NCBI GenBank assembly: GCA_963807635.1 | Contig: CAWEDJ010000040.1 | Location: forward strand, 1 to 64,000 | Direction of reading: 5' to 3' | DNA: 64,000 bases | Source of the DNA: an uncultured cyanobacterium | GTDB taxonomy: Bacteria > Cyanobacteriota > Cyanobacteriia > Cyanobacteriales > Microcystaceae | Part shown: piece by piece, positions 1 to 22,440 of the stretch | Numbering within the stretch: the stretch's first letter is position 1 | Layout of the letters: the number at the start of each line of letters is the position of its first letter | The notes under the pieces: generated by a model | What the model was told of the DNA's origin: nothing | The model's database searches: none | Seen by the model: only the letters and a program-made list of their open reading frames with translations | Made by a program: the position numbers and the translations under genes

Positions 1-180
1 AAGCAGGTTTTTATATTTGGTTCACATTTAGACTACATTTTTCAACGAACTCTAATGCGTGAAAGGCTTGTCTTATAAGAACTTCGATAACTAAAGATGT
101 TATCTCAATCCTTTGATTGTTAAACCAAATTTAAAATATTGATTTTTACCGCTAAGGGGCCGCGCAGTACTGAAAAAAAA

Positions 181-398
181 GTGGATTCCTCCTTGATCGG
201 AGGTGATTTAGTAGCCATAACTGTGGTAAACCCACACCACTTAATGCTGGGTGCAACCTTATTCCCGTCCGAAAACAGCAGCTTCAGGGTGTACAGCTAC
301 TAGGGTCAGAAAGCAAAACTGTCTTCCAACAGTCAAACTAACCCGTTTCTCACCGATCAGAGGTTTACGAAGAAACATGACCGATGGTGCTTTTAATT
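181..398 (-). ncRNA. Type V-K CAST tracrRNA (ends approximate)
   Basis: Minus strand carries blocks typical of V-K tracrRNAs: GGGTTAGTTTGACTGT..ACAGT, GCTTTCTGACCCTAGTAGCTG, CACCCTGAAGCTGCTG, CCCAGCA, GGCTACTAAATCACCTCCGATCAAGGAGGAATCC followed by a T-run. Directly downstream of cas12k. Confidence 0.88.
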
Positions 399-404
399 AA
401 TTCT

Positions 405-433
405 ATTATATTGTCAAGGTTCAGTGTTGTAAC
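405..433 (-). promoter_or_regulatory. Putative tracrRNA promoter
   Basis: CACTGAACCTTGACAA-TATAAT on the minus strand between the cas12k stop and the tracrRNA; perfect -10 TATAAT at 410-405. Confidence 0.55.
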
Positions 434-437
434 ATTT

Positions 438-2339: not shown

Positions 2340-2345
2340 TTTTTG

Positions 2346-2398
2346 AACAAAATTGTTTAATACAAACACAAGTGTATTTTAGCATTCTTTTATAAGAT
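2346..2398. promoter_or_regulatory. Divergent cas12k/cvkR promoter region with candidate CvkR operator
   Basis: Palindromes AACAA-AA-TTGTT (2346-2357) and ACAC-AA-GTGT (2366-2375); TAAGAT -10-like hexamer 7 nt before the cvkR ATG. Confidence 0.4.
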
Positions 2399-2405
2399 CG
2401 GCTAT

Positions 2406-2858
2406 ATGGAAAAAAGTTTTTTTAGCAGCAAGGAAGCCGCGATTTTAACGGAATGTACTTTGCGCCAGTTGCAATATTGGCGTGAAAGTGAAGTTATTGT
2501 GCCAGCAGTTGGTGCAACAGGGACGGGAAAGAGTATTTATTACTCCTATCGTGAGTTGGTTGAGTTGGCATTGATGAGATATGTATTATTTCTAGGGTTG
2601 AGCTTTGATGTGGCACGAAATATTTTGCGATCGCTCAAGGAAAAGGTTCCAGAATATGCAAATCCTGACATAAAGGTACGATTAATGTTAATTTGGGACA
2701 GTGGTTCGGGAATATTGGACTTGATAGAATTTGAACGTGAACAGGCGATCGCGTTTCTAGATAACGGTCAGCCGATTATTCCATTGTGGTTGGATCTTAT
2801 CCATCAGAAATTACAGCAGCAATTGATAGAAAAAGATTCGGTTATGTCTAATAAATAG
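2406..2858 (+). CDS. cvkR: MerR-type CAST repressor CvkR
   Basis: FFSSKEAAILTECTLRQLQYWRE MerR HTH; divergent from cas12k, the usual V-K arrangement. Confidence 0.85.
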   Translation: MEKSFFSSKEAAILTECTLRQLQYWRESEVIVPAVGATGTGKSIYYSYRELVELALMRYVLFLGLSFDVARNILRSLKEKVPEYANPDIKVRLMLIWDSGSGILDLIEFEREQAIAFLDNGQPIIPLWLDLIHQKLQQQLIEKDSVMSNK

Positions 2859-2908
2859 TAAATAGTCCAAAAATCCATTGTTTGGAGAATCAAAAGTAGG
2901 TTGGTAGC

Positions 2909-5117
2909 TTGAGTAACGAAACAGATGCCCGAATCATTATTGATGACCAATTGCGTCAAGCAGGGTGGAATCCTGCCGACAAGACTCATGTTCTAACTGA
3001 AGTCAAGACAGACAGGGGTAAACCTGACTATGTTTTGCTGGATCAAAGAGGGCGATCGCTGGCCGTTATTGAAGCAAAAAAAGATGCGATTGATCCCTAT
3101 ACAGCAAAACAGCAAGCTCTACCCTATGCCCAAAGTTTAAAGGCTCCCTTTATTTTCTTGACCAATGGAGAACTGATTTATTTTTGGGATTATCTCAATG
3201 ACGATGCTCGGCTCGTTAACTCTTTCTTTTCGCGGCGAGACCTAGAGCGTTTGGTAGAAATGCGCTCAAATAGTAAGCCCTTAGCCACGATCGCCATTCC
3301 TGAATACTACCTAAGACAAGGGGAAACCCGTGAAGTCCGTCCCTACCAACAGGAAGCAATGCGGGCAATGGATCATGCTCTTGAGTTGGGTAAACGGCGT
3401 TTTTTGATTGAATTGCCAACGGGAACAGGAAAAACTGACCTCATTTGTTTACAGATCAAACGGTTGATTGATGCGGGTATTGCGGAAAAAATTCTGTTTT
3501 TAGTGGATCGGGAACAACTGGCCAAACAGGCGAGGGAATCTATCACAGATATTCTGCTGCAATACGATAGCTATTGGTTAAAGCCAGGAATTGTGCGGCA
3601 AGAAAAACAAATCACGATCGCCCTCTTGCAGACAATGATTGGGCGTTATCCCGAATTTACCAGTGGTTATTTTGACATTGTGATTGCTGATGAATGTCAC
3701 CGTTCTATTTATGGGGTTTGGCAAACGGCCCCTCACCTACTTTGATGCGTTTCATTTGGGCTTGACAGCAACTCCCGCAGGCTACATTGACCGCAATACC
3801 TTTAATTTTTATCAATGTCGCAATGAACAGCCCGATTTTTCCTATCCCATCCAGGATGCCTTTAAAAGTGAGTATTTAGTCCGCTATACCTTTGCCAAGG
3901 GGATCACCGAAATTTTGGCTGACGGGGCAGAGAAAGATGGTGTGCAGTATGATCCAGCGCCTTTGAGCGCAAATGGACGAATGAAGATACCAATCGCTTG
4001 ATGATGGAGGAATTTGATCGGTTGGCTTGGGGCAATTATTTGGAATTAGCTCCTGACCAGAAAATTGGCCCTGGTAAATCCATTGTTTTTGCCATCACGA
4101 AAAGTCATGCGGCCCGATTAACCCGTTATCTGAATGAACTCCATCCCGAATGTAAAGGGAAATATGCCGAGGTGATCACGAGTGATGCTGGCCAATGCCG
4201 ATGACTTAATTCGTCGCTTCAAGTACGAGGATTATCCCCAGGTCGCGGTCAGTGTGGATATGCTCAGTACGGGTTTTGATTGTCGGGAAGTGTTGCATTT
4301 GGTCATGTGTTGTCGCATTCGTAGCCCGATTTTATATCAACAAGTGCGGGGACGGGGAACGAGGGTCGCGCCTCACATCGGTAAACAGCGATTCATGATC
4401 TATGACTTTTTTCGTAATCACCAACATTTCAACGATAGCGATGAGGATTTTTTTGCTGGTACGGGAAGAGGTAGCAGTTCGGGCGGTTCAGGTGGTGGCC
4501 CCCGTTCTCCCAGAGAATTAATCGAATTGGGAATCGGCGATCGCTGGAAGGAGGCTGTGCAGTATGTAGAAATCGGTAATGAGGGGGAACAACTCGATAA
4601 ACGTCGCTATGTCACTATTTGGAAAGAAACCATCAATAATCAGGTATCAGAGGATTTAATTTTACAGAAAATTCGACTAGGTGAGTTCTTAACGGAAGAA
4701 GAAGAAAATCAAATAGAGCAGCAGCTTAACCAACCCAAATATTATTTCAATGAGGAGAATTTGCGCCGAGCTTACAACAATCCGCAGAGTAATCTGATTG
4801 ATTTTATTAAAGCCGCTCTGAAACTGATTAAGATTAAGAGTATTGCTGAACAAAAAGAAGAAAATTTTAGGGCATGGCTGATTATATAATCTTTTACGCC
4901 AGAACAAGCCAAATATCTGTCCTTGCTCAAGAATCGAGGTATCGCTAAAGGAAAACTGAGTCTCGAAGATCTTTTTCAGCCGCCCTTATCCGTTTTGAAT
5001 GCGGCAGGCTTAGGGATAGAATTGTTTGGAGAGCAGGGATTGAAGGATCTGTTCGATGACTTAAATCGTTCCGTTTTTCTCAACGACGCAACGGAAATGG
5101 CTAAGGAAGCAGTATAA
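2909..5117 (+). pseudogene. hsdR: Type I restriction enzyme R subunit, split into ~5 ORFs by frameshifts (possibly sequencing indels); CAST cargo
   Basis: PDYVL..VIEAKK nuclease motif, PTGTGKT Walker A, DECH box, LGLTATP, MLSTGFD, QVRGRGTR across successive frames. Confidence 0.85.
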
Positions 5118-5122
5118 AACTC

Positions 5123-6107
5123 ATGGATCAAGATTTACGGCGCAAACTCGACGGTCTCACGGACACTCTCTGGGCAGGAGGGATTACCAATCCTGTTACC
5201 TACATCGAGCAAATTTCCTATCTAATTTATCTAAAATTGTTGGATGAGGAGGAGTCCCAGCGAGAATTACGCGCTCGTCTCACAGGGAAAGATGATGATA
5301 CAAAATTATTGTTTCCTCAACAAGCAGAACGCTATCGGTGGTCAAAATGGCGATTTAAAAGCGGAATGGATCTGAGGGATTTTCTGCGGGATGAGGTGTT
5401 TCCCTACATGGCTAATTCCCTGATTAAAGATGCGCCCAAGGTAGCGGATTATTTTCGGGATGCGGTACTAGAGATTAATGATCCGAATGTACTAAAAACG
5501 GTGATTGATAAGTTGGATGCCCTCGAACTCAGTAAGTTGGGGCAAGACATTAAGGGGGAAATTTTTGAGTATTTACTGACTCATTTAGGACAATCGGCAT
5601 TAAATGGTCAATTTCGCACTCCTCGTCAGATTCTCTCTTTCATGGTGGAGATGGTTGATCCAGAGTTTGGGGATAGCATCTGTGACCCTGCGATGGGGAC
5701 AGGGGGCTTTTTAATTGATTCCTTGGATTATATTTTGGCAAAATATAGTGAAAATCCCGTTGAGATTCCCATTTATGGAGAGGATTGGCTGGATAAGCGG
5801 GGTCAAAGTCTGGCAGAGGCGAAAAAAGAATTACCGAATTTACAAACCTATCGCAAAGGGATTAGGGACAAGTTACCAGATTGGAAGCTGTTGGAATCTT
5901 CTATTTATGGCTTTGATGTATCGCGGCAAATGTTACGCATTGCGATGATGAATTTGGTTCTCCATGAGGCGAAGAATGCCAAAATCAAGCTGGCCAATGT
6001 TTTATCTGATCTGGGGGGATTGAGTGAGGATGATTTGCGTCGTCGCTATAAGGTGATGTTGGCAAATCCACCGTTTGCGGGAACATTGCCCAAGGATTCG
6101 ATTCGAG
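5123..6107 (+). pseudogene. hsdM: Type I R-M N6-adenine methyltransferase M subunit, 3'-truncated by a mobile element
   Basis: GQFRTP, DPAMGTGGF (SAM motif I), NPPF (motif IV). The ORF runs into an inverted-repeat element at 6108. No C-terminus and no hsdS follow. Confidence 0.85.
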
Positions 6108-6457
6108 CCCACGTTCCGCAGGTGCAAAAGAACTTTTAAACAATTTTAAAATCCTTACAGAACAAGGGTTGTGCGAATTACTGTCTTATTCATGGGCTTA
6201 TACTAAACCGAAAAATAGGCTTATCGTGATAGTGAATCCAGCAAGTATCTTTTTTCTGATGACGAATGCTCTCATTTTGTTTGATGAAAAAATTAACAGT
6301 AGAGAGAAATATTTCTAGCCGAAAAGTCTTCAAAGCTTTATCACATAGGAAACGCAGCTTTTTCAGAAGTATTCCTGACCCAACAAACTAATCTACGGAA
6401 AGAAAAAGTAGTACAAATGTATTATCTTGTTCCTTGAGTCAACCTGCGGAATGTGGG
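6108..6457. mobile_element. 350-bp non-autonomous element (MITE or internally deleted IS1634-like)
   Basis: 16-bp TIRs CCCACGTTCCGCAGGT (6108-6123) and ACCTGCGGAATGTGGG (6442-6457), one mismatch; no transposase; no matching TSD. Confidence 0.7.
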
Positions 6458-6460
6458 TTA

Positions 6461-7409
6461 TAGTCATTTTAGATAAGGATGAGACAATAAAAAAATGATG
6501 TATACTGGTTAAAAAACATAAAAGGATTGAAAAATATGCCTTACAGTCTAGACTTAAGAAAAAGAGTGATAGATTTTGTGGAAAAAGGAGGAAGTGCAAC
6601 CCATGCAGCAAAAATCTATCAGGTAGGCAGGGCAACAATATATCGGTGGTTGGGAAGAGAAAATCTAGCACCAACAATAGTAGAACATCGTAATCGAAAA
6701 TTAGATTGGAAAGCGTTAGAAAAAGATGTAAAAGAAAATCCCAATGACAGATTAGTAACGAGAGCAAAAAAGTTCGGAGTGCATTTAAGTGCAATATCCT
6801 ATGCATTAAAAAAGATGGAAATCACCAGAAAAAAAAAGAATTACGTTACCAAGAAAGAAATAGAGAAGAGCGTATCAAGTATTATAGAATGCTGAGAGAA
6901 CTGATTAAGATATACGGAAGTGGAAGTCTAGTATTTATAGATGAATCAGGATTTGAAGAATTTCAAGCTATTTTGTACGCTTGGTCAAAAAAAGGCAAGA
7001 AAATCTATGGAGAAAAGCAAGGAAAGAGAGGAAAGAGAGAAAATTTAGTAGCGGGAAGAAGAAAAGGGAAAAAAGATTTTATTGCACCAATGATATTTGA
7101 AGGAAGTTTAGATGCGTCGGGTTTTGAAGGTTGGTTAAGTCTATTTCTGCTACCTTCACTAGCTATACCATCAATACTAATTATGGATAATGCCCCGATT
7201 CATCGAAAGACGGTGATCAGACAGTTAGTAGAAGAAGCAGGGCATAACATCATATTTCTTCCCAAATATTCTCCTGATTTAAACGATATTGAACATGATT
7301 TTGGTGCGCTAAAACGAGCGAGGATGTATGCTGACCCTGGCACATCTCTCGACGAAATTATCCGTCAATACTGTACCGCATAGTGTCTCATTCTTATTTA
7401 AAATGACTA
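6461..7409 (+). mobile_element. IS630-family element
   Basis: 26-bp TIRs TAGTCATTTTAgATAAGgATGAGACA / TGTCTCATTCTTATTTAAAATGACTA with TA on both sides. Confidence 0.9.
6527..7383 (+). CDS. IS630 transposase, two ORFs joined by a frameshift at an A-run (~6830)
   Basis: YSLDLRKRV HTH N-terminus; FIDESG, MDNAPIH, LPKYSPDLNDIE DDE motifs. Confidence 0.9.
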
Positions 7410-7551
7410 TATATGCTATTTAAATGACTAATAGCTTAGGAGAATTTCAAATATTGAAACATTTACAAGAGAAAAAAGAAGAAATTGAGGAGATTAAGTT
7501 TGTTAATTGTACTCATTAATCTTTCTGCCCTGCTTCAGCATATTTTAGATT

Positions 7552-8219
7552 TTAAGCCATTTTATTTAAAATATCCTGAGCAGTTTGGGCAACTTGTTCA
7601 AAGGGATCTTGGGCTAATTCTGTTAACACCTTTTCTACCTTGTCTTTCTCAAATTGTCCTAACGCGATCGCCAATCGAAAACGAACTTGCCAATCTTCAT
7701 CTTTCGCTAAAGGTAATAACAAAGGAATCGCCTCAGAAATTTGTAAATCCCCTAAAGCACTAATGGCCGCCGTCCGAATTAAACTATTTTCTGAATTTAA
7801 AGCAATTTTGAGTAAATCAAAACCCCTGGCATCGCCCATTTTCCCAAAGTTGCGATAATACTCATCTGCAACAGCCACTCTGGAGTCGTTTCATAAACTT
7901 TTTGTAAATCTTCATAGGCTTCCGTGAGCTTTAGCCCCCCAATCACATCGGCGGCAACGGATTTGACATCAACTTCTGGATCATTAAAAAGGCGATCGCG
8001 CAGTAAAACCAAGGCTTCCGAGGGATTTTCCTGACCTAAAGGATCGAGTTGACCAACGGCGGCGTAGCGAATTCGGGGATTAGAATCATTAATGAGGGGT
8101 TTCACCATCTCAAACGCCAATTTAGGCTCGATTTGTCTGAGTTGATTGAGACCACGCACGCGATCGCTGAAGGAATCAGAACTGAGTAATTGTTGAACGG
8201 ATTCAGGGGTAACACTCAT
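7552..8219 (-). CDS. nblB: NblB-like HEAT-repeat phycobilisome degradation protein (apparent frameshift ~7845)
   Basis: MSVTPESVQQLLSS..DRVRGLNQLRQ; HEAT repeats; the two ORFs join by one base. Confidence 0.75.
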
Positions 8220-8434
8220 TTTTGATAAAATCTTAAAAATAAATATTGCCTATTGTCCCATTCAGACAGCCCAGAAAAACGCTTCGTAACTGAATATTAA
8301 GATTTAAGCCCGAAGTCGCATTTTTATTAATGACACCAATAATCAGTATTTTGCAATTTAATACATCACAAGAAAACCAAGCCTCGACGCTCAATTAAAA
8401 GTGCTTAACAAGTGCTTGACCGAAAAAATTGAGA

Positions 8435-9514
8435 TTAATCATCCATCTGCCAGGGTTCTAACAGATTATTCTCATCAAAAATCCGTTTAGGTCGCAATAC
8501 CACGATCGCCTGACCGATAATTTCGACCGTCGGAGCGGACTCAAACCAATCGACCTTGACGTTTTCTCCTTCCTCTACCAAGAAAAATCCATCTTCATCC
8601 CATTCCTTGGCCGCCCGATCAATGACGACGAGAACAGTTTCATTTTTGTTGGTTAATGCGTCCGATAATTCGCCACTTTGACAGAAAAATGCGATGGGAT
8701 CAACCGCTTTTAGGACAATTTGCCAGCCAGGAAGCGGCACGACCGCTCCAGAGCCTGAATATTCCACCATGCCAAAGGGTTCAATAATATTTACTGCTTG
8801 AACCGCATTAATTTTCTCACGGGTTAGGGGCCAAGTTCCCGCGACAGGAACCAATCGCGACAGCTCCTCATCATTTTCGACACGATGGAGGGGAATCAAT
8901 GGAGCCTTACGGGTTGGAGTGACGGACAAATCGCTCAATAATTGTTCGATCGCCGTTCTAGCAGAGGGAGAATGGGCAAATTTTAAACCCTTCGCAATCA
9001 AACGAGTTCGGGTTTGCAGGTTTTTAGTTTGTCGGGCAGATTTCCAACATTGATAGGCGATCGCATCTCCAGGATGGTCGGTAAATCCAGAGGGTAACTG
9101 GGAAAAACGAGTAAATTCCTGAATGGCTTTGGCTAATTCCTTGGCGACCTCATTATCTAGGTTTTTCTCATAGGCCGTTTCGGCGGCGGCGGCACGTCTT
9201 TTGTGATTGAGGACGCGAAATTCATACAGTACATCACTTTTCGGGCCAAGAAAATAGTTTAAAATCGTTTCTGACACATTAGAATTCACTAAACTTTCAT
9301 AGACCTGGGAAGCAACAATAATTAAATTTTGCTGTACCTTCTGGAATCCTGTTTTTTCAAAGATTATTTCGGCAGAATAACCCGCTTTTTGGAGTTTTTG
9401 GCAACCTTTTCCCCATTCTACCCAGTTTCCTTCTTTGTGCAGTAGCGATCGCATTAATTCAGTAGCGACTTCTTCGGAGAGGACTTGCTGGGATTCGGGG
9501 AGATGCTCGTTCAT
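8435..9514 (-). CDS. raf1: RuBisCO accumulation factor 1
   Basis: LLHKEGNWVEWG..QNLIIVASQVY; C-terminus LRPKRIFDE..WQMDD. Confidence 0.92.
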   Translation of the reverse strand: MNEHLPESQQVLSEEVATELMRSLLHKEGNWVEWGKGCQKLQKAGYSAEIIFEKTGFQKVQQNLIIVASQVYESLVNSNVSETILNYFLGPKSDVLYEFRVLNHKRRAAAAETAYEKNLDNEVAKELAKAIQEFTRFSQLPSGFTDHPGDAIAYQCWKSARQTKNLQTRTRLIAKGLKFAHSPSARTAIEQLLSDLSVTPTRKAPLIPLHRVENDEELSRLVPVAGTWPLTREKINAVQAVNIIEPFGMVEYSGSGAVVPLPGWQIVLKAVDPIAFFCQSGELSDALTNKNETVLVVIDRAAKEWDEDGFFLVEEGENVKVDWFESAPTVEIIGQAIVVLRPKRIFDENNLLEPWQMDD

Positions 9515-9707
9515 GGAAAGAAATAACGGGGGGATTTCAGAAAAAAGCTTAACTAGCTCAACTTCAATTGTGCCATGATTCAGTAGCTCTCTTTCTGCAA
9601 TTTCTACCTCAAAAGCAAGTGTTAATAAAAGTTTGTAGAAATCTTACCCAAAATAGATACAACTCTTTACGAATTCAGGAGTTTCGTAAAACTTTGCAAA
9701 CACGTTC

Positions 9708-10631
9708 TTAATTCGCTGAAAGAATCTTAGTTAATGAAGACTTTAAATTAGGATACTGAAACTCAAAACCCGTTGATTGGGTTGCCTTGGGTAAAACTTC
9801 TTGTCCTTCTAAAACTACCTGGGCCGCTTCACCCAGCAGAAGTTCGATCGCAAAATCGGGAACGGGTAGCCAAGAAGGACGATTTAGAACACTGCCTAAG
9901 GTTTGACAAAGTTCGTTCATGCGGACGGGATTTGGAGAAGTCGCATTAAAAGTTCCCTCCATATTCGATTGTTTCAAAGCAAAAATAATCAAATTAACCA
10001 AATCATCCCGATCAATCCAGGAAAACCACTGACGACCATTGCCAATGGGGCCACCTGCAAACAGTTGAAAAGGCGGGATCATTTTGGCTAACGCTCCACC
10101 GTTACCAAGAACAATCCCGAAACGCAAAATGACGGAACGCACATTCAAGGCTTTAACCTTTTTTGCTTCTGCTTCCCATTCTTGGCAAACCTGAGCTAAA
10201 AAATCTTTGCCTGAAGGACTACTCTCTGTAAAAGTTTCCGTTTCACTAGAGCCGTAATAACCGATCGCCGACGCATTAATTAATACTGTCGGTTTAGATT
10301 CTGCTTGACTAATGGCTTCTACAATTTTTTGAGTGCCTAACTTACGACTTTCTAAAATCGCTTTTTTATATTCGGGTGTCCATCTTTCGGCGATCGCTTC
10401 TCCTGCTAAATTGATAACAGCATCACAACCAGAAATCGCTTTTTGCCACTCCCCCGATTGGGTCGCGTCATAGGCAACGACTTGGAGATTAGGATAGGCA
10501 GACATCGGGAAGAGACGTTGTGCTTTTTGAGGATTACGAGCCAAAATCACTAGGGAATGATTTTCACTGTTTAATTCTGCTACTAATTCTGTTCCGACGA
10601 ACCCCGTCGCACCTGCAATTGCAATTTTCAT
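9708..10631 (-). CDS. thyD: TIGR01777-family epimerase (SulA-like/ThyD)
   Basis: [34 protein letters not shown]. Confidence 0.85.
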
Positions 10632-10734
10632 GAAAGATATTACCCGATTGTTTGATTGATTTTATGATAAAAAATAGCTGAAAATACTGATTTTAGTTAG
10701 GGATAAAGTTATCTAAAATCAGCTTGAAAAAAGA

Positions 10735-11166
10735 TTAAGCCTTATCTTGATAACCCATGCCATTGGCTTCTGCGTAACGATTCATGAAACGCATAAACCG
10801 TTCCCAATGGTCATCTTCATAGATTTCAAAGCCGCATTTAACCCCCTTTAGATCATCTCCATCATCTCCTCCGAAAATAAACTTTAAAGAAGAGGGTTCC
10901 GCACTGATTTCACCCTCAGAATCCTTAAGACGGATTGAGCCATGAAATTCGTTAGTAAAACTCTGGAATTTTTTGATCGCTTTCAGATTTTGGAAGGTAA
11001 ATAAAACCGTGCGATCACCTGTTTGTTTATTTTTCCGTAAACTCACATTACTTAAGGTTTCGGGTAATCCCGCAAAAAATTCGATAGTCGGTTCAATGCT
11101 TGGTTCAATGATTGTTTCAATGGCTGGTTCAATGGTTTCTTCAACGGAAGGAGTTGTATCTGACAT
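10735..11166 (-). CDS. psb28-2: Photosystem II assembly protein Psb28-2
   Basis: IEFFAGLPETLSNVSLR...WERFMRFMNRYAEANGM. Confidence 0.85.
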   Translation of the reverse strand: MSDTTPSVEETIEPAIETIIEPSIEPTIEFFAGLPETLSNVSLRKNKQTGDRTVLFTFQNLKAIKKFQSFTNEFHGSIRLKDSEGEISAEPSSLKFIFGGDDGDDLKGVKCGFEIYEDDHWERFMRFMNRYAEANGMGYQDKA

Positions 11167-11244
11167 GATAAAAACCTCAATTTATACAAGTTGATTAAAA
11201 GTTTTAAGAAAAAATTATAAAAAAAAGTGATTACATTACCAAAA

Positions 11245-11356
11245 TGTAGGGGCGTATTGCGTACACCCTTGGATTAATCTATCGATTAATTAACGTTTTT
11301 TGGGTACAATCCCCCCGATCAACTAAAGATTTTGGGCGCAAGCCTTGCGCCCCTAC
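11245..11356. repeat. Inverted pair of GTAG-type REP palindromes (REPIN-like)
   Basis: TGTAGGGGCGTATTGCGTACACCC facing GGGCGCAAGCCTTGCGCCCCTAC, intergenic. Confidence 0.65.
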
Positions 11357-11491
11357 GGTTGAATAAATATATATTTGTTTGACAATTTTTAAAAGCTAAT
11401 TAGAAAGAAATAATTTAAAAATTATTCTGATAATTTGAGATGAAGAATGAAGAAAAATTTCTCTCTCCATTCTGTCTCAATTAGGGAAAAA

Positions 11492-11602
11492 TTACTCTTC
11501 GCCGCCTTGTAATTTGAGGATCAACAATCCCCAGGCTAAACCCACCAAAGTGAGAACGATAAGAAGGATTGCACCGTTAAATAACATACTTTCTGCGGTC
11601 AT
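11492..11602 (-). CDS. petM: Cytochrome b6f subunit PetM (36 aa, not in the ORF track)
   Basis: Manual translation [44 protein letters not shown] upstream. Confidence 0.9.
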
Positions 11603-11741
11603 GTTTATGTCTCCTGGAATAAGAAATTAAGGTTTTTAGGTAAAAAATTGAAGAAGGATTATTTTTCGATGGTGAGTTTATTAACGGTTGAGGATAACCA
11701 TTATTGCTATTGTAGAACAACTAGGCTCTCCAAATCTGACT

Positions 11742-12779
11742 ATGGCTCCATCCCTTCCTCGTCTTGCTCTCACCCTGGGCGATCCCTCTGGCATCGGTAC
11801 AGAAGTTATTCTCAAAGCGTTGGCGGATTCCGCGATCGCCCAATTGGCTCACCTTACCCTCGTCGGTACACGATCGCTGTTAAACCGTTCCTATCTCAGG
11901 CTCAAACAACAGGGGCTAGAGGTTGCTGATCCTGAAAAATTCTCCCTTTTGGAAGTTAGTTTAGACAAAAATACGGAAGCTCAACTCCAATTAGGCCAGG
12001 GGAATGGGGCCAGTGGTGCGGCTAGTTTTGCCTATCTAGAGACCGCGATCGCCCAAACCTTGGCGGGAAATTTTCAGGGAATTGTCACGGCTCCGATCGC
12101 TAAATCAGCTTGGAAAATGGCGGGTTATGATTTCCCTGGACAGACAGAAGTTTTAGCAGAACGTTCTCAGATCAAAAAATTCGGGATGCTTTTTGTGGCG
12201 CGATCACCTTATACAGGTTGGACAATGCGTACCCTGTTAGCAACCACCCATATTCCCCTAAATCAAGTTTCGGCAACCCTTACGCCTGAGTTGATGAGTC
12301 TTAAACTAGAGTTATTGGTGCAAACTTTGCAAGATGATTTTGGTCTTGCCTATCCGACCATTGCGATCGCGGGTTTAAATCCCCACAGTGGCGAACAGGG
12401 ACAAATTGGCACAGAAGAACAGGATTGGTTAATGCCTTGGTTAGAGCAAGCCCGTCAACACTTTCCCAAGGTGAAATTGATTGGCCCCGTTCCCCCTGAT
12501 ACGCTCTGGGTTAAGCCTGGGCAAGCTTGGTTTAAGGATGGTAATATTCAATCAGCAGATGGTTATTTAGCTCTTTATCATGACCAGGGTTTGATTCCCG
12601 TAAAATTAATGGCTTTTGATCAAGCGATTAATACAACCATTGGTTTACCGTTTATTCGCACCTCTCCTGATCATGGCACTGCTTTTGATATTGCCGCTCA
12701 AGGAATTGCTAGGGCTGATAGTATGAAAGCCGCGATCGCATTGGCCGCAGAATTAGCCCAATCCCGATTTTGCAATTAA
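11742..12779 (+). CDS. pdxA: 4-hydroxythreonine-4-phosphate dehydrogenase
   Basis: [33 protein letters not shown]. Confidence 0.95.
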
Positions 12780-12828
12780 ATGAAAAAATATTAAAATACG
12801 TTTAAATCCATGACATGGAGATTGAAAT

Positions 12829-14390
12829 ATGCCCGTCAAAATTGCGATCGCTCAAATTCAAGTAGCCCCTGGTCAACGGCTGATATTGGAGAATATTAGC
12901 TGGCAAGAGTTTGAAGAGATTTTAGACGATTTAGGAGAACATCGTCATTCCCATATTGCCTATTACCGAGGAATTTTCGAATTTCGGATGCCATTACCAG
13001 GACATGAACGAGCTAAAGTCTTGATTGGAGACTTATTGAAAATCATCCTAGATGAACTAGGGCGTGTCATCAATTAGGGGGGTTGACATTAGTGGCAAAT
13101 AATGCGCAGAGTATGAAATGACACAATATACGTTGAAGAGAGGTGTGAATATGACGAGGCGTTATGCGTTGCGGGATGACCAATGGGAAAGAATCAAAGA
13201 GCTATTACCTGGAAAAGAGGGAGATGTGGGAGTAACAGCCAAAGATAATCGTTTGTTTGTTGAAGCCGTATTATATCGATATAGAGCGGGCATTCCTTGG
13301 AGAGACTTACCCGAAAGGTTTGGAGATTTTCGAGTGATTCACACGCGTTTTACGCGATGGACGAAATCAGGGGTGTGGGAAAAGGTATTCAAGCACTTAG
13401 CGCAGGACGCTGATAATGAATACGCAATGATAGATGCAACGATTGTGAGAGCGCATCAACACAGTGCAGGAGCAAAAAACAGTAGCGCAGAGGAAGAAGA
13501 TATAGGAAGGAGTACAGGAGGATTAAGTACGAAAATCCATGCCGTAGTAGACGCATTAGGGAATCCAGTCTCTTTTTTCCTAACGCCAGGTCAAGCGTGT
13601 GATTTAGACGGAGCCGATGTGCTATTGCCTGATGTAGAAGCAGAAGCGGTGCTAGGGGACAAAGCCTATGACGCAGACGATAGAGTCATTAAGGTTCTAG
13701 AAAAAAGAGGGATAGTGCCTGTGATACCCTCGAAAAGTAATCGAAAAGAACCTCGCCCTTATGATACATTTTTGTATAAAGCGCGTCATTTAGTCGAAAA
13801 CTTCTTTGCGAAACTCAAACAATATCGTGCGCTTGCGACTCGTTACGAGAAGCGCTCAGCCAATTTTCTAGGCGGCATCTATCTGGCCGCATCAGTTATA
13901 TGGTTAGCGTAGCCCAGTTTGAACAGCATAATTATTCACTAATGTCAAGTGTGTTAATTGATGACACGCTCTAGGTCTAGAATGGGAATCTTTGGGTTCA
14001 ACGACTTTTAAAAATCAAGCAATGCAAGCAGGAATTGAACCTGATGATTGTTTTTACATTCAGAATTATCAAACAATGATAGGGAAACAACGTCTCGATC
14101 TGACAGTTGATCCTGTTCCTGATTTAGCGATCGAAGTAGATTTTACATCCCTTGCTCAGGTTAGTGCTTATCAAGCGTTAGGGGTCTCTGAAATCTGGTG
14201 TTATAAAAAAGGAAAGTTAGAAATTAGTGTCCTAGAAAATGGTCAATATGTGAATGCCTTAACGAGTAAAGTGTTTCCTGATTTACCTGTGCTTGAAGGA
14301 ATTTCTCTCTTTCTGGAAAAAAGTGGAGAAGTGCCGATGAGTGCATTGCGACGAGAATTTCGTCAATGGTTAAGGGATTATCTGGTATAA
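12829..14390 (+). pseudogene. Uma2-family endonuclease interrupted by IS5
   Basis: Removing 13060-13971 plus one TA restores ILDEL-GLEWESLGSTTFK..GIEPDDCFYIQ..PDLAIEVD. Confidence 0.9.
13060..13971 (+). mobile_element. IS5-family element (IS427-like), copy 1; transposase 13118-13912
   Basis: TIRs GGGCGTGTCATCAATTA / TAATTGATGACACGCTC; TA duplication in CTAG; WRDLPERFG, IDAT..RAHQH, GDKAYD, ENFFAKLKQYR. Confidence 0.92.
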
Positions 14391-14490
14391 AACAGGATTA
14401 CATCGCATTTTATATACTTGAGAAACGCGTAAAGAAGAATTTTTTGTATTTATCGACAGTTTAAAATTAAAATAACTAAAAGTTTAACGT

Positions 14491-14790
14491 TTAACCGACG
14501 GGATTAGTCCTAGCTTGTCGAACCATCGCAATAAGGGTTTGATGGGCATCTTCGGAATCCGTTAGAGTATGATCAAATTCAATTCGCAATGTATCTTTTT
14601 TTTCCTGAATTTGAATCGATAAATTCATTCCCTGGGCATCAATAGATAACATTTGAGCCGTTTCTGTTTCAGGTTGATTGCCATAGACCTTGGCGTAAAG
14701 CGCGATCGCTTCGGCGTGGTCTTCGTTCATGTGTTTACAAATGCGATCGCTGATAGCGGGAGTGAGGAGGTCAGCCATAGATTTTGACAA
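14491..14790 (-). CDS. DUF2470 domain protein (heme/GluTR-binding-like)
   Basis: SDRICKHMNEDH..AHQTLIAM. Confidence 0.8.
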   Translation of the reverse strand: MSKSMADLLTPAISDRICKHMNEDHAEAIALYAKVYGNQPETETAQMLSIDAQGMNLSIQIQEKKDTLRIEFDHTLTDSEDAHQTLIAMVRQARTNPVG

Positions 14791-14996
14791 TATAAATTTT
14801 TACACTATAAAAAATTGCGATACCCATTAATATAACAGCCCTGGGGGAGAAAATTCGGCAATACAGAAGAAAGCGTGCAAGGAAACTCAGATTAGATTAG
14901 GATAGACTTAGGGCAATTTGTGGATTGGATAGTTAAACTTCCATTTAAAAATCATCCCAAAAACCTATAAAAATAATCGCGATTGGCAGAACATCA

Positions 14997-15224
14997 ATGC
15001 AGAAACGACCTTCTTTTGATTCTTCTCAAGTTATGTACCGTTCCGAAGACCTCCTAAGAGCGGCTTCTAATCGTTACCACATAACGGTTTTGGTGGCTAA
15101 TCGAGCTAAACGTCGTCGTTATGAAGATCTGGACAGCATTGATGATCCGATGATGAAACCCACGATCCGCGCCATTATCGAAATGTCCGATGAACTCACC
15201 CAGCCCGAAATTATTAGTGATTAA
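14997..15224 (+). CDS. rpoZ: RNA polymerase omega subunit
   Basis: [33 protein letters not shown]. Confidence 0.92.
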
Positions 15225-15269
15225 AAGTGGGCGTTAGCATAGGACAAATCTAAGCAAAAACTAGCAATC

Positions 15270-15929
15270 ATGACCTTTCAATCTAAAACTCAAAAAATTA
15301 TAGAGGTTCTGCTTGGTCAAAAGCAAAATTTAACGAGCAGGATTCTATCGTTTTTTTTGTTAGCCCTGCTTGGTCTAAGTTTAGTTTTGGGGTTAGGAAC
15401 CCATCATAATTCCTCCGCGATCGCCCAAAATCCGCCCACCGTTCCTAATACCTCTTCAATTCGGGCAGAAGGAGCCGCCGCGATTGTTTATCAACAACTG
15501 CCGTACTTGCCCAAGGAAAACGAGTATCGTCGCAAGGAAACAGGAGAAATCGACCCCGAACATACCCTAATTAGTCGATTTATTCGTTATAATCAGGATT
15601 TAAAAAAGCGGACAAATCGCTATCGTTTTGACTGGAAACTCACCCTAGCGGATTATTTAGGGGTGAATGAAACGATTGATCCCCAAACCTATCCTGGGAG
15701 TGTCACCCTCGCCACCAATCCCTTTGAAACTGACGCTAAGGCCATTCAGGCATTAAATCGTCGTCAACGTCAAGAATTAGTGGATTTATTAGCTTTTATT
15801 TATAAACCTCAAGCCACAGAAAAACCTGCTAAAACCAAGATTTCCCCGACACCCCAATCCACTCCCAAGGATGAGTCAGGCAAGCCTTCTCTCGCTAAGC
15901 CTGGGGATGCTCAACTATTAATGCCTTAG
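15270..15929 (+). CDS. Conserved cyanobacterial exported hypothetical protein
   Basis: Hydrophobic N-terminal segment; YQQLPYLPKEN, RFDWKLTLADYLG; in the rpoZ-DUF1818 gene cluster. Confidence 0.7.
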   Translation: MTFQSKTQKIIEVLLGQKQNLTSRILSFFLLALLGLSLVLGLGTHHNSSAIAQNPPTVPNTSSIRAEGAAAIVYQQLPYLPKENEYRRKETGEIDPEHTLISRFIRYNQDLKKRTNRYRFDWKLTLADYLGVNETIDPQTYPGSVTLATNPFETDAKAIQALNRRQRQELVDLLAFIYKPQATEKPAKTKISPTPQSTPKDESGKPSLAKPGDAQLLMP

Positions 15930-16046
15930 TGTCTTTATTTATTCGCGCAGGTAGAAAATGGTATGAAAAGGTGTAAAACAAGAGAATGAAAAAGATTGGA
16001 AAGGATTCTAGTGATGAGTATAGCCGAGCGAGAAAAACAAATCCTG
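15926..16046 (+). mobile_element. Truncated extra left end of the IS256-family element
   Basis: ~121 bp nearly identical to 16048-16167 (one SNP, GAATG vs GAATA). Confidence 0.85.
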
Positions 16047-17429
16047 GTTAGTGTCTTTATTTATTCGCGCAGGTAGAAAATGGTATGAAAAGGTGTAAAA
16101 CAAGAGAATAAAAAAGATTGGAAAGGATTCTAGTGATGAGTATAGCCGAGCGAGAAAAACAAATCCTGCGTGTGAGACAGCAAGGTTTTCATCCTCAACT
16201 AAACGAAGCTTTAACCTCAAAGTTAAAGACAGAAGTGGTGGATACGGTCAAAACGGTTTTAGAAAGTGCCTTGAAGGAAGAAGTGACAGAATTTATCAAG
16301 GCAAGAGAGAAAAAAACGTATCGCTCTGGGTACTATTATCGTGGAGTAAACACTCAATATGGACAGATAAGTGATTTAGCCGTCCCCAAATTAAGAGAGG
16401 GGAATAAAGAAAGAGAATGGCAGATTTTAGAAAGATATCAGCGAAGTCTGGGAAATTTATTGGATTGGATGTGTGTTCTCTATGTGATGGGGCTATCCTT
16501 ACGAGATTTGCAGGAGGCTTTATATTTGATATTAGGAAAAGTACTATCGGTAAGTGCGGTGAACCAGATTACTCTTAATGTTCAGAAACAACTAGAAAGT
16601 AAAAGACAGGTTCCTCTGGTCAGAATCCCCAAGATGATTTTAGTGGATGGAGTCTGGGTAGAGATTCAGTACACAATGGCTGGGGAGTTCAAAGAAGACG
16701 AATCGGGACATTTAAGGCAATGTCGGCAAGTAGAAAAGCGTGTGGTGTTGGCAGTAATGGCAATCTGGGAAGATGGTTCGCAGGAATTAATCCACTACGA
16801 AGTAGCTGAAACGGAGAGTGAAGCCGCTTGGACAAAGGTATTTGAGAGCTTGATAAGACGGGGACTAAACCCGAATCATCTCGAATTACTAGGCAGTGAC
16901 GGTAGTTTGGGATTACCCTCCGCCATGAAGAAATGTTTCCCTTTGGCTCAACAACAACTCTGTATTACTCACAAAATTAGAGGAATTGAGCGTCACCTTA
17001 ACTATTACCATCTACCTTCGGTAACTGCTGCTGGCTGCTCTCTGAAACAGAAAGAGGCACGAAAACAACGTTCCTTCGAGAGCACTTCTGATGCTTACAA
17101 GATTTATCAAGCCCCTCAAGTCTCCGATGCTCAATCACTTTTAAAAGCCTTTGAGGAGAAATGGCAACCGATTGAACCAGATGCAGTTCGTACCTTTCTC
17201 AAAGATATTGAGTTGACCTTCACCTTCTACCAATTTGATGACTCTTTGCACCGGCATCTTCGCACGACTAACCATCTCGAACGCCTATTTCGAGAGTTTC
17301 GCACTAAGTCTGATGAAATTGGGGCTTTTCCTAACGAAACTAGTTGTCTAGCTCTCTTTTGGCTTGTTGTCGAGCGTGACCATGCTAAACATGACCGTAG
17401 AAACTACGCGAATAATTCATGACACTAAC
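16047..17429 (+). mobile_element. IS256 (Mutator)-family element, copy 1; transposase 16118-17422
   Basis: TIRs GTTAGTGTC..TTATTCGCG / CGCGAATAA..GACACTAAC; ATTAATGC(C) repeated outside the composite element; VPKLR, LVDGVW, SDG, RTTNHLER motifs. Confidence 0.88.
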
Positions 17430-17443
17430 ATTAATGCCTTAGT

Positions 17444-17812
17444 ATGGAAAATCGGGTATTCAAAGAAGCAGACGGTTGGCGCATCGGGTTTAATCCTAAT
17501 CCTGCAACTTACCAAGGATTGATCGGGGGTCAGGATTGGGCGATCGAATTGACCTTGGCGGAATGGCAAGATTTTTGTCGATTGGTCAGTCAATTAAGCG
17601 AAACAATGCAAGCGATCGCCGCTGAATTGATGGACGAAGAAAAAATCACCTGTGAAGCGGAAAGTGAGCTAATGTGGCTAGAAGTGACGGGTTATCCCCA
17701 ATCCTATTCTCTACGGTTTATTTTGAATCAGGGACGTTGTTGTGAAGGGCAATGGCCGCATGGAGTTGTGCAAGATTTCATTCAATCTTTACAAACCCTG
17801 ACTTTTTTTTAG
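17444..17812 (+). CDS. DUF1818 family protein
   Basis: GWRIGF..GLIGGQDWAIELT..ELMDEE..LWLEV-like motifs. Confidence 0.85.
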   Translation: MENRVFKEADGWRIGFNPNPATYQGLIGGQDWAIELTLAEWQDFCRLVSQLSETMQAIAAELMDEEKITCEAESELMWLEVTGYPQSYSLRFILNQGRCCEGQWPHGVVQDFIQSLQTLTFF

Positions 17813-17834
17813 TTTTAGAAGAGTGTTGAAAACC

Positions 17835-17903
17835 TGTACAGTAACTAATTATTTGTCATTGTAACGAACTCGTGTCATCGAAACAACAAAGCTCTAAAAC
17901 TTT
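17835..17903 (+). mobile_element. Orphan Tn7-like/V-K CAST terminal end, truncated by ISNCY
   Basis: TGTACAG terminus followed by two TnsB-site-like repeats, TAACTAATTATTTGTCA and TAACGAACTCGTGTCA. Confidence 0.75.
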
Positions 17904-20707
17904 CAGCAATTCCAAATTCAAATGGTATAAACAAAAACAGAATGGTATTCGCATTTAGGGGTCTATGAACAAGAAGAGAAACTTTTGCTGGTTTTGTAGA
18001 GTGTGAAATGAAAGTAACCGACCTAAGTTTTGATGGAATCATGGAGTGTTTAAACGAGGTTATCGCAAAAATAGATGACCCGCGCTCAGCGAGTAACGCA
18101 ACGAAATATAGTCTAAGAGAGGCGATACTGGGTGCATTTGCCGCCTTTTTTACGCAAAATGAGTCATTTTTAGAGTACCAACGTCAAATCAACAGTCGTT
18201 GTGGGCGAGATAATGCTCAAAGTTTGTTTGGACTAAACAAAATACCGACAGTAGAGCAGATTCGTAATATTGTGGATGGGATAACTGAGGTGGCCCCAAT
18301 AGGCTGAACAAAAATAGCGGGGAGTGAAGCTCTGAAGTTAACGGACTCCCTAACTAAAAACGTTCTCTCAAGTCAAATTCAAACTTTGACCGTAGACTTG
18401 CTCTGGCGTTTGATATTCTAAGGCTTGATGGAAACGTTCCTTATTATAGAAATTAAACCATTTCTTTACCTCTTCTGTCAAGTGTTTTCCATCCTCAAAG
18501 GAATAAATATAAATTAATTCGTATTTCAGAGAACGCCACAATCTTTCAATAAAAATATTGTCGTAGCAACGTCCTCTTCCATCCATACTAATTTTGATGT
18601 TTTCTTGCTTTAAACATCCTGTAAATTCCTTTGAAGTAAATTGGCTTCCTTGATCACTATTAAAGATGTCTGGTTTGCCATAAATTAATAATGCTTCCTC
18701 CAAAGCTGACTTACAAAAATAAACATCCATCGTGTTACTCATCCTCCATGATAAGACTTTACGGCTAAACCAATCCATAATGGCGACTAGATAAAAGTGT
18801 CCTTTTCCTATTGGCAAATAGGTGATGTCGGTACACCACACTTGATTGGCTTTTTCAATGCTTAACTCTCGTAATAAGTAAGGATAAATTTGATGCTCAG
18901 GGTTTCGTATTGTTGTTCGTTTCTTTGGGTAAATTGCTTGTATCCCCAATTGATTCATCAATCGTATCACTCTTTTTCGATTTACCTCATAACCCAACGT
19001 ATTGAGGTATACTGTCATTTTTCTACTCCCATAAAATGGTGTTTTCATATATTGCTCATCCAACAGTCTCAATAGCGTTAATTCTTCGGAACTTATTTCC
19101 TTCGGTTCGTAATAATAACTCGAACGACTTATTCCTAATAATTCACATTGACGTTGGATACACAATTCAGGATGCTTGGGGTCTACCAAGGTTTTTCGGT
19201 CGGCAGCCCCAATTGTACCGACCTGTCTACTAAAAAATCTCGCTCGACTTTTAGCTTTCCTATTTGTCGATATAGTTCATCTATCTGGGTTTCAGCTTTT
19301 TCTTTGATTTCTTTTCCTTGTTTTTCTGTCTCAAAGATTTGACTAGCTTCTTCCAATATTTTTCTTTTCCATCCATTAATCATTGTTGGATGAATTTCAT
19401 ATTGACTGGCTAATTCAGATACCGTTTTTTCTCCTCGAATTGCTTCTAAGGCGACTTTGGCTTTGAACTGGGCACCGTACTGTTTTTTCTTGTTGCTCAT
19501 AGATCTCCTGGGTTTCGATTTAGAGCTTACACTACTGTCCAGTTTTGGGGGGCCACTTCAAACAGCGAGCAGTCTATTCCCATTGTTTGGGTTGATTTAC
19601 CAAGCATTGAGAAACATGGGATTCCTAAAATCTTATGAGATATTGGGGGGAAATCTATTAGTGGCGATGGATGGAACAAATTATCACAGTTCAGGGAAAG
19701 TCAATTGTCCATGCTGTTCAACCAAAACGTCAAAACAGGGAAAAGTCACCTACTTTCATCAAGCATTATTACCAGTGATTGTTTCCCCAGACCATGAATC
19801 AGTTTTCTCCTTAGCTCCTGAATTTATCACTCCTCAAGACGGGTCGGAAAAACAGGATTGCGAGCAAAATGCGGCAAAACGCTGGATAAGTAATCATGCC
19901 AGTTTGTTTGCATGGCAGAAGATAACGCTACTAGGGGATGACTTGTTCAGTCGTCAGCCGACTTGTCAGCATAGTCTAGACCACGACTTCAACTTTATCT
20001 TCGTCTGTTTGCCGACTTCTCATCCCACACTTTATGAGTGGTTAGCCTATTTAGAAGCCAACGGGGAACTCAAAACTACTCAACACCGACGCTGGAATGG
20101 GAAGTATTTTGAGATTTGGCAATGTCGTTATCTCAATCAAATCCCCCTGCGAGAGCAACAGCCTGCTTTGTTGGTTAACTGGTGTGAACTAAAAGTCTAC
20201 CGCGAATCCGATGCTCAACTCCTCCATCACAATAGTTGGATTACCAACCATTTTCTCACCCCTCAAGTCGTTCTTGATGTCTGTCGTGCTGGACGGACTC
20301 GTTGGCGCACGGAGAATGAGAATCACAATATTCTCAAAAATCGGGGCTATCATTTAGAACATAATTTTGGGCATGGAAAACAACACCTTGCCTCCGTTTT
20401 GCTCACTCTCAATCTACTGGCTTTTCTCTTCCACACGGTTTTGGGTTTGGTTGATGAACGTTACCAGAGGATTCGCGTCCAACGCTGTACTCGTAAGGGA
20501 TTCTTCCAAGACTTTCTTTCTTTAACCAAATATCTACTCTTTGAAAGCTGGCATCATCTTTTAGATTTTATGCTTGATGACCCCCTTTCTCCTGCTGCTT
20601 CCAATTCTTCTTAATTTCTTACTTGGAAATCTTCAAGGTAAAACCCTTGCCAGTAAAAAGCTTGAGTTTTTTTTGTCTTTAGCTACATTCTGAATTTGGA
20701 ATTGCTG
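17904..20707 (+). mobile_element. ISNCY-type element whose transposase (18008-20614) is interrupted by IS3
   Basis: TIRs CAGCAATTCCAAATTCA / TGAATTTGGAATTGCTG; removing IS3 restores VDGIT-ASSLFP; AMDGT, LGDDL, RWRTENE motifs. Confidence 0.8.
18286..19560 (-). mobile_element. IS3-family element; orfA 19183-19500, orfB 18368-19189
   Basis: TG...CA ends with TGAgGTGGCCCC inverted repeats; 3-bp TSD AAC; FKAKVALEA HTH; WCTDITY, NSDQGSQF, DNIFIERLWRSLKYE. Confidence 0.93.
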
Positions 20708-21605
20708 GTCATCAATTAATACACTTGACATTAGTGGATAATTATGCTGTTCAAGCTGGGCTACGCTAACGATATAACTAAAAATGATGCCGCCTAGAAA
20801 ATTGGCTGAGCGCTTGTCGTAACGAGTCGCAAGCGCACGATATTGTTTGAGTTTCGCAAAGAAGTTTTCGACTAAATGACGCGCTTTATACAAAAATGTA
20901 TCATAAGGGCGAGGTTCTTTTCGATTACTTTTCGAGGGTATCACAGGCACTATCCCTCTTTTTTCTAGAACCTTAATGACTCTATCGTCTGCGTCATAGG
21001 CTTTGTCCCCTAGCACCGCTTCTGCTTCTACATCAGGCAATAGCACATCGGCTCCGTCTAAATCACACGCTTGACCTGGCGTTAGGAAAAAAGAGACTGG
21101 ATTCCCTAATGCGTCCACTACGGCATGGATTTTCGTACTTAATCCTCCTGTACTCCTTCCTATATCTTCTTCCTCTGCGCTACTGTTTTTTGCTCCTGCG
21201 CTGTGTTGATGCGCTCTCACAATCGTTGCATCTATCATTGCGTATTCATTATCAGCATCCTGCGCTAAGTGCTTGAATACCTTTTCCCACACCCCTGATT
21301 TCGTCCATCGCGTAAAACGCGTGTGAATCACTCGAAAATCTCCAAACCTTTCGGGTAAGTCTCTCCAAGGAATGCCCGCTCTATATCGATATAATACGGC
21401 TTCAACAAACAAACGATTATCTTTGGCTGTTACTCCCACATCTCCCTCTTTTCCAGGTAATAGCTCTTTGATTCTTTCCCATTGGTCATCCCGCAACGCA
21501 TAACGCCTCGTCATATTCACACCTCTCTTCAACGTATATTGTGTCATTTCATACTCTGCGCATTATTTGCCACTAATGTCAACCCCCCTAATTGATGACA
21601 CGCCC
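20708..21605 (-). mobile_element. IS5-family element, copy 2 (outer 6 bp of one TIR lost; transposase 3' end altered)
   Basis: Near-identical to 13060-13971; TIR begins GTCATCAATTA directly after the ISNCY end; a 3' indel extends the ORF to 20633. Confidence 0.9.
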
Positions 21606-21607
21606 TA

Positions 21608-22440
21608 AAATATTCTTAATAATTTATTAGCTACATTTTCTACAAGTGAGAATCTGGGCATTGGTTTAAAAGCTCATTGTATTAAAATATGGTCAAACAC
21701 TCTTACTATTCTCTCTTATGTTGAACTTAATGACGATTCTACAAATAAACTTTATAAGTGTCTAATTAACTCTTTGGATACTCCACAGTGGTTTAACTTA
21801 TCTGAGTCTATAAACAGATTTATCGTTTATCAAGTAAATAGGTATAGAAACAGCCCATCTGTTGAACATTTAGTAATTTTATGTGAACGACAGATTGAAA
21901 AATTAAATCAAAGTAATAATATTTCAATCAAAGAAGATGGAAGTCTATTTGCAAATCTTATACATTTAATTAAAGAGTCAAATACAGAAGGATCTAAAAA
22001 TTTACAATTATTTGCAAGTAAAAATGGTAAAGAGATAGAAATTTTTATTTTGAAAGTTTCAGAAATGCAACTTAATCAGAGACTTCGTGTAATTAATAAT
22101 TTTGTTTTTGTCATATATATGCTAATTGACGATGTAAATCTAAAAGAAAAGATTAAAAAATTGTTGATAGATACATATAACGAAATAAAAAGAGATGATG
22201 GATTTGAGAAGATATATATTTACGGTTTAGTTTTTTATGATTTGAAATTATTAGAGAAAGATGAGCTAACTTCTCTTTTAGAGAGACTAGAAAAAAGGTA
22301 TTCTATCCAGGACTTATATGTCCATTAAAGAACAACTGTTAAGACTTCCAGAAGATATTCTTAACGACTATAAAGAACTAATTGAAAATGTCATAAAGCT
22401 AAGTGATAGGACAGAAAAATTTTTTAACCTAAAAGAATAA
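21608..22440 (+). pseudogene. AT-rich C-terminal gene fragment, 5'-truncated by IS5 and frameshifted ~22325
   Basis: Open frame from the IS5 junction through 22328; an alternative frame continues IKEQLLRLPED..FFNLKE* to 22440; no recognisable motif. Confidence 0.5.

Follow-up and report, generated by a model that had tools for sequence, protein, structure and literature searches.

The window, the 64,000-nucleotide stretch analysed here, forms the start of contig C40 of the genome (G000), with nothing upstream of its position 1 on that contig. Positions 1–6107 carry the cas12k half of a type V-K CRISPR-associated transposon (CAST). A presumed leader (1–142) is cut by the contig start. The tracrRNA region (143–430, minus strand, approximate limits) lies downstream of cas12k and was located by homology to two other CASTs, one on contig C102 of the same genome (175–374 matches at 74%) and one intact in a genome of the same genus (G005). 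An Rfam search of this region returned no match. The cas12k gene (438–2369, minus strand) is an open frame of 643 amino acids that scores 930.6 bits against NF038191 (cut-off 150) and is 89% identical to that of G005; no cas12k was found in G001–G004 with the query used. A MerR-type regulator gene (2406–2858, plus strand; PF13411) occupies the position of cvkR and is followed by the cargo of the CAST (2909–6107, plus strand), which comprises the hsdR gene of a type I restriction system and a 5′ portion of hsdM. From the tracrRNA region to hsdM (143–6107), the window is 87% identical to the G005 CAST, and hsdR has three 1-bp frame breaks relative to it. These breaks are not readable as decay, since the same type of error occurs elsewhere in the assembly. 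Indels of 1–2 bp relative to the closest relative, G004, at window positions 7842, 26600, 27277 and 27480 split nblB and an amidase gene and alter tRNA-Arg(CCT); they are likely sequencing errors.

The cas12k half of the element ends at an insertion sequence (IS) cluster. At 6107, hsdM is broken off by a miniature repeated element of 350 bp (6108–6457) whose terminal repeats are 16 bp long; the break coincides exactly with the point where G005 homology stops. Next come a multicopy IS630-family element (6461–7409, plus strand), with identity to its other copies reaching 100%, and the terminal 29 bp (7410–7438) of another IS630-family element, which has four complete copies elsewhere. The 3′ flank of nblB comes after them. 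The exact left breakpoint is not fixable, as a TA is all that IS630 duplicates and one of six copies of the miniature element has a duplication; IS256, taken as a duplication control, has 8-bp repeats at two of four copies. A block of host genes then extends from 7437 to 17812 (nblB, raf1, psb28, pdxA, rpoZ and DUF1818). It is collinear with G004 at 97% identity and carries extra IS5 and IS256 insertions. Its last gene, DUF1818 (17444–17812, plus strand; PF08848, E 1.8e-49), is 98% identical to the G004 gene.

Beyond the DUF1818 stop, a 22-bp spacer (17813–17834), whose last 5 bp are AAACC (17830–17834), leads to a 69-bp stub on the plus strand (17835–17903). The stub starts with the terminal TGTACAG and contains two TnsB-type sites, recognised from the sequence and by alignment (17842–17857 and 17862–17876, plus strand). 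It reads rightwards, away from cas12k, whose start is 15.5 kb off. A sequence-only reading of this DNA had described such an end, with the same distance from DUF1818, about the same length and the same orientation, and these particulars hold on the window coordinates, with the TGT beginning at 17835 and AAACC belonging to the flank. The stub is cut at 17903 by a multicopy 1,526-bp IS with 16-bp terminal repeats, which begins at 17904 and, with an IS3 inside it (about 18285–19561), reaches 20707 (plus strand). This IS cuts the terminal repeat of an IS5-family element (20708–21605, minus strand), assigned to its family from a 98% identical copy at 13118–13912. Both junctions of the host block therefore consist of IS sequence. 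An intact copy of the 1,526-bp IS encodes a 442-amino-acid protein with no NCBIfam match and only a sub-threshold Pfam match to DDE_Tnp_1_assoc (PF13808); the sequence-only reading had labelled the element ISNCY, and a profile search gave no family above cut-off. The 9-bp flanks of the window copy differ, in line with the earlier suggestion of an IS junction that lacks a matching duplication, whereas the six other complete copies all have perfect 9-bp duplications. One 9-bp site in the IS5 terminal repeat has been hit repeatedly, in either orientation, by this IS and by a related element (window 20699–20716; G000:C90:6005, C22:1521 and C49:18421). Further right, an AT-rich 184-amino-acid open reading frame (21774–22328) has no Pfam or NCBIfam match and no DNA match in five same-genus genomes.

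We compared the stub with known CAST ends. Aligned with the tnsB-side end of the intact G005 CAST, it is identical in 55 of 69 bases, and it shares 37 of its first 45 bases with the tnsB-side end of Scytonema hofmanni UTEX 2349 (L080). The G005 right end matches window 17834–17882 at 90% and has three further sites at positions 135, 165 and 221. Left and right ends also differ in the spacing of their outer sites, as seen in a scan of genome contigs that yielded at least 122 V-K-type ends at no fewer than 119 loci. Among the matches listed (122 ends, 119 loci), a tRNA lies upstream of none of the 41 ends with 20-bp spacing and of 44 of the 58 ends with 21-bp spacing, while 23 of the 122 fit neither spacing. 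The two outer sites of the stub are 20 bp apart and are followed by a gap, as in a right end. Together, the two alignments and the spacing bear out the right-end assignment made from the sequence alone: the stub is the outer part of a type V-K right end and lacks the three inner sites present in G005.

A genome-wide end scan with a score threshold of at least 10 gave four candidates, namely the stub at 17835, C96:92, C102:13546 and C102:32790; a match on C98 (score 8) was discarded as not end-like. A score for TGTACA plus a site, devised after the stub had been seen, has three occurrences in the genome and none in each of 10 mononucleotide shuffles, which argues that the stub is not a chance occurrence. 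The survey of ends yielded further observations. At L081:2501, a 20-bp-spaced, right-type end sits immediately behind tRNA-Thr(CGT). There is no tnsB within 2.5 kb of it, and it may have inserted in reverse orientation. Among the matches listed, TGT directly precedes 7 of 54 tRNA-adjacent ends (L089–L207), above a rough expectation from base composition (p 5e-5), and 2 of 40 right ends (Fisher p 0.29 against the tRNA-adjacent ends). This could reflect a target preference of TnsB or insertion 3 bp into an older end.

The stub lies next to a site that is empty in G004. In this relative, DUF1818 and tRNA-Val(CAC) are convergent and 48 bp apart with no transposon between them, and the 1.4 kb past the tRNA is 97% identical to contig C96 of the present genome. 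C96 carries a three-site V-K left end at C96:92, 41 bp behind tRNA-Val(CAC), and C96:17–95 matches the G005 left end at 82%. Two GTN PAM candidates in the tRNA, GTT and GTC, lie 59 and 66 bases from this left end, in keeping with the distance of about 60–66 bp in V-K CASTs. A terminal TGT and arrayed TnsB sites are thus present at both ends, with two sites left in the stub and three at C96:92. Because G004 has DUF1818 48 bp from tRNA-Val, followed by C96-like DNA, there is a strong case that a single attachment site is marked on one side by the stub beside DUF1818 and on the other by the left end beside tRNA-Val. An uninserted relative with a tRNA next to DUF1818, as the sequence-only reading had anticipated, therefore exists. 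The site is lineage-specific, as tRNA-Val(CAC) neighbours DUF1818 only in G004 among 29 other DUF1818 loci. At 16 of these 29 loci (L012, L014–L017, L020–L027, L030, L031 and L035), the gene that comes after DUF1818, on its strand, is tRNA-Pro(GGG). The G004-type spacer also follows the DUF1818 stop in contigs from three of four sequencing runs examined (X1, X4 and X7, from three studies). The spacers on the DUF1818 side and on the tRNA side were considered as IS ends, and no repeated family was found for them.

The left end on C96 reaches the contig edge after 92 bp on its inner side, and the tracrRNA region of the window likewise reaches the edge of C40. The assembly contains no CRISPR array or 17-nt anchor spacer for the window's element; the array would sit in the gap between these two contig edges, and C96 and the window start would be joined across it. 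The genome holds two cas12k genes and four V-K ends, of which one gene and two ends are accounted for by the element at C102:13546–32790 (L002, L003). Located at tRNA-Gly(TCC), the latter encloses tnsB, tnsC, tniQ, cargo, the second cas12k and a five-repeat array with a matching anchor spacer. Its full gene set, its own tRNA site and a perfect 5-bp duplication show it to be complete and distinct from the window's element. Between its left end and anchor spacer lies an open reading frame that resembles a serine recombinase (labelled by reading the sequence), with long inverted repeats on either side of it. tnsB and tniQ each occur once in the genome, both on C102, with no second copy in the assembly. 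The 3′ part of hsdM, hsdS, tniQ, tnsC, tnsB and the inner right end of the window's element are absent from the assembly, and the G005 hsdM 3′ end and further cargo find only paralogue matches of 64–71% over one gene in this genome. A tnsB-tnsC-tniQ operon is not present directly inside the right end; since the genome is 93.7% complete, these genes may be displaced and unassembled.

The sibling CAST in G005 (C94:1000–22514) shares the start of the type I restriction cargo. In contrast to the window's element, it resides at tRNA-Thr(CGT) and has a matching 17-nt anchor spacer, a full array and tniQ-tnsC-tnsB. It also carries an AddA/AddB-like helicase-nuclease pair beside tniQ (L040:13215–19135; sub-threshold NCBIfam matches) and an IS between array and anchor spacer.

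The order of the pieces in the window differs from that of an intact insertion. In G004, DUF1818 points to the tRNA, and with a CAST inserted there, cas12k would be expected on the same strand as DUF1818, rightwards of the right end. In the assembly, cas12k instead lies to the left of the stub on the opposite strand, and the two ends do not face each other. The host block (7437–17812) is thus inverted relative to cas12k and tRNA-Val, compared with the order in G004. The sequence-only reading had proposed a single inversion of 7.4–17.9 kb. The net inversion stands, but one clean flip does not fit because the IS families at the two junctions differ, the assembly contains no reciprocal of the left junction, and the DNA past the right junction (after 21.6 kb) is not the neighbour of nblB in any of the four relatives with a usable nblB match (G004, G001, G002 and G005). 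Contig C22, which starts with a copy of the 1,526-bp IS, was considered as the reciprocal of the right junction. This is conceivable at most, its 9-mer being an insertion hot spot, and in G004 the DNA beyond the gene on C22 corresponds neither to the 21.6-kb region of the window nor to anything in the assembly. The tns genes may be displaced, and the C22-edge copy is a candidate partner.

From these observations we infer that the simplest history combines an inversion from hsdM to past nblB with a deletion or exchange at the IS in the right end. The stub probably derives from the same CAST as the window's cas12k, which would have been guided between tRNA-Val(CAC) and DUF1818, likely by RNA, and would then have undergone at least two IS-associated rearrangements and lost its tns genes. 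The original order would have been DUF1818, right end, tnsB-tnsC-tniQ, cargo, cvkR, cas12k, tracrRNA, array, left end and tRNA-Val. An inversion with breaks in hsdM (at the miniature element/IS630 cluster, 6108–7438) and just past nblB would have carried the right half of the CAST together with the host block nblB–DUF1818. The 1,526-bp IS may have landed in the right end, 69 bp from its tip, and its junction with the IS5 terminus would stem from a deletion next to it or from exchange with a further IS copy. These rearrangements likely removed tnsB, tnsC and tniQ, and the inversion and the right-end IS event could have occurred in either order. The locus is a descendant of a V-K CAST in which the features of a functional element, tns genes, facing ends and a duplication, are missing. 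If C96 joins the window start, the ends point the same way, and the relic would then no longer be a transposable unit, even with the TnsB of C102.

A single element would be expected to have left a 5-bp target site duplication. The sequence-only reading had predicted GGTTT, the reverse complement of AAACC, before the left end, and regarded any other sequence as refuting one element. C96 has CTTGG at this position, overlapping GGTTT by GG (2 bp), and the duplication of the stub/C96 pair is therefore unmatched. The C96 flank does contain a GGTTT, 23 bp farther from the left end, but this was rejected as the true duplication, having no GTN PAM 60–66 bases before it and no end after it. The GGTTT criterion, which by its own terms refutes a single element, is too strict. 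We collected facing V-K end pairs on single contigs, chosen by eye among the matches listed (15 taken, 1 lost, 4 added; L208–L237, L113/L154, L143/L168 and L181/L199). A perfect 5-bp duplication is present in 5 of the 18 pairs, which may not each enclose one element. Where a tRNA is found at exactly one end, 4 of 13 pairs have the duplication and 9 do not (a rough rate), and the complete G005 element also lacks a matched duplication. With only 4 of 13 tRNA-anchored pairs keeping it, the CTTGG/GGTTT mismatch is weak evidence against one element. The low rate among facing pairs may matter more than the single locus.

The unmatched flanks bear most directly on an alternative that keeps the same site and the rearrangement and invokes two successive insertions. 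The right end would stem from a first sibling CAST, and the left end, perhaps together with cas12k, from a second that inserted 3 bp nearer the tRNA; recombination would then have left a hybrid with unmatched flanks. We consider this unlikely. Read as one empty site joined through the shared GG, the flanks put the GGTTT duplication 62 bases from the GTT PAM (calculated), compared with 62 at C102, 63 in G005 and 59 for the present left end, and leave the left flank 3 bp short. This geometry suggests two insertions 3 bp apart or a small deletion, although a 2-bp overlap is not rare by chance; an overlap of at least 2 bp is estimated to arise by chance about once in 12 cases. None of the 13 other mismatched pairs overlaps by more than 1 bp, which also counts against two insertions, whereas the loss of the duplication in most tRNA-anchored pairs is compatible with them. 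Neither flank resembles the 48-bp spacer of G004, and therefore the site has seen events that are not accounted for; the 3′ flank of tRNA-Val indeed differs between the present genome, G004 and two G003 copies, as successive insertions would allow. Against these points, the assembly contains no leftover inner end, and pattern scans of metagenome and genome contigs found no empty-site allele of the lineage. More tentatively still, the 3-bp offset might be the footprint of repeated RNA-guided homing to one tRNA site and recombination between the copies. If so, given that a matching duplication is also lacking in most of the natural V-K end pairs sampled, repeated homing and recombination would be a routine cyanobacterial way of resolving or replacing V-K insertions in the absence of TnsA or a resolvase, and such replacement could be read from genomes alone.

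The inverted order could also be produced by the assembly, if mis-joins across identical IS copies had occurred at both junctions and the true CAST were normally oriented, with its middle unassembled or unbinned. The repeats at both junctions have copies that are 99–100% identical, C22 opens with a 1,526-bp IS copy whose left-flanking 9-mer is the one on the right of the window copy, and no same-strain reads were found. We nevertheless think this improbable. The perfect 9-bp duplications at 6 of the 7 complete copies of the 1,526-bp IS indicate that the assembly usually crosses 1.5-kb repeats correctly. There are no Ns, and the 1–2-bp indels relative to G004 look like long-read errors, so that the assembly itself appears to be long-read. 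The shared 9-mer is a hot spot, with the C90 copy at the same IS5 site in the other orientation, and the explanation would need two mis-joins and a missing contig. Exact-pattern scans of metagenome and genome contigs gave no same-strain or same-species match to the junctions or the empty site. In a search of sequencing runs for the same strain, at most 0.37 of words matched; runs X19, X21, X22 and X24 cover only the tRNA of C96, and X1, X4, X7 and X9 do not cover 17821–17900, gaps that count neither for nor against the joins.

Intramolecular events of replicative transposons swap flanks, and the CAST's own TnsB could in this way have altered one flank, through an adjacent deletion or inversion, before the IS events. 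The available text of PMC11406308 describes V-K elements as moving by replication without TnsA or a resolvase, with cointegrates formed, and the handling of cointegrates in native hosts as not established. For the present locus this route is very improbable, as both ends still flank the original site, both visible breakpoints are IS sequence rather than CAST ends, and no duplicated element is seen. Least probable of all is the alternative raised in the sequence-only reading, a relic of an independent second CAST, one without relation to the window's cas12k, that inserted after DUF1818 either untargeted or guided by a PAM within that gene: GTN triplets do lie 64 and 67 bases before the end, inside DUF1818, and the duplication is unmatched, but GTN is common, the PAM-proximal end should be a left end (10.1101/2023.07.14.548620, in its accessible part) while the stub is a right end, the stub is closest to the family of the window's own cas12k, a chance landing within 48 bp of another CAST's site would be required, and the empty site of G004 largely refutes it. 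DUF1818 as the guide target was rejected because of the wrong end type and the commonness of the PAM.

We compared the rearranged single CAST, our preferred reading, with characterized systems. ShCAST (S. hofmanni UTEX 2349; L080, ends L222/L223) resembles the stub in its TGTACAG and two TnsB sites 20 bp apart, and the window's element in having cas12k with a tracrRNA and a left end behind a tRNA. ShCAST has tnsB and tnsC after the end, inner sites and a perfect 5-bp duplication, whereas the stub breaks off after 69 bp, points away from cas12k, and lacks both tns genes and a duplication. The CvkR-type V-K CASTs of Ziemann et al. 2023 (PMC9938897), as far as the available text describes them, have the same layout of tRNA, left end, tracrRNA, cas12k, divergent merR and cargo, and the PAM-to-left-end distance here falls within their range of 46–82 nt. 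In that text tnsB, tnsC and tniQ always follow the right end, and they are absent here; the readable supplements contain no mention of tRNA-Val or of the genus name.

Published surveys commonly find such elements without tnsB, tnsC and tniQ. According to the accessible part of Hsieh and Peters 2021 (10.1101/2021.02.06.429022), a tnsBCQ operon lies near 152 of 282 cas12k genes, and the other 130 (about 46%) are read as decay. Their degraded Tn7-CRISPR-Cas12k elements, like the locus described here, have cas12k, a tRNA site and an end but no nearby tnsBCQ. The legend of their Fig. 4 refers right ends elsewhere in the chromosome to other tRNA-targeting Tn7-like elements, and an inversion after which a V-K right end points away from its own cas12k is not described in that part of the paper. 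ISs, the IS3 family in particular, are reported inside about 30% of Tn7-like elements in the available text of PMC8649781. Our literature search brought up no description of this locus, nor of a V-K right end in inverted position. The relic is likely an unremarkable mobile element in decay, another of the decayed V-K CASTs, and it offers a worked case of element death, in which ISs hit the cargo and the right end and pieces leave with host genes. End-finding pipelines that require facing ends would miss or split such a relic. Facing V-K-type ends also occur at much shorter distances: among the matches listed, miniature elements with two such ends about 50–250 bp apart are present in several copies per genome (L114, L115 and L117; G053:C91; G055:C9, C20 and C82).
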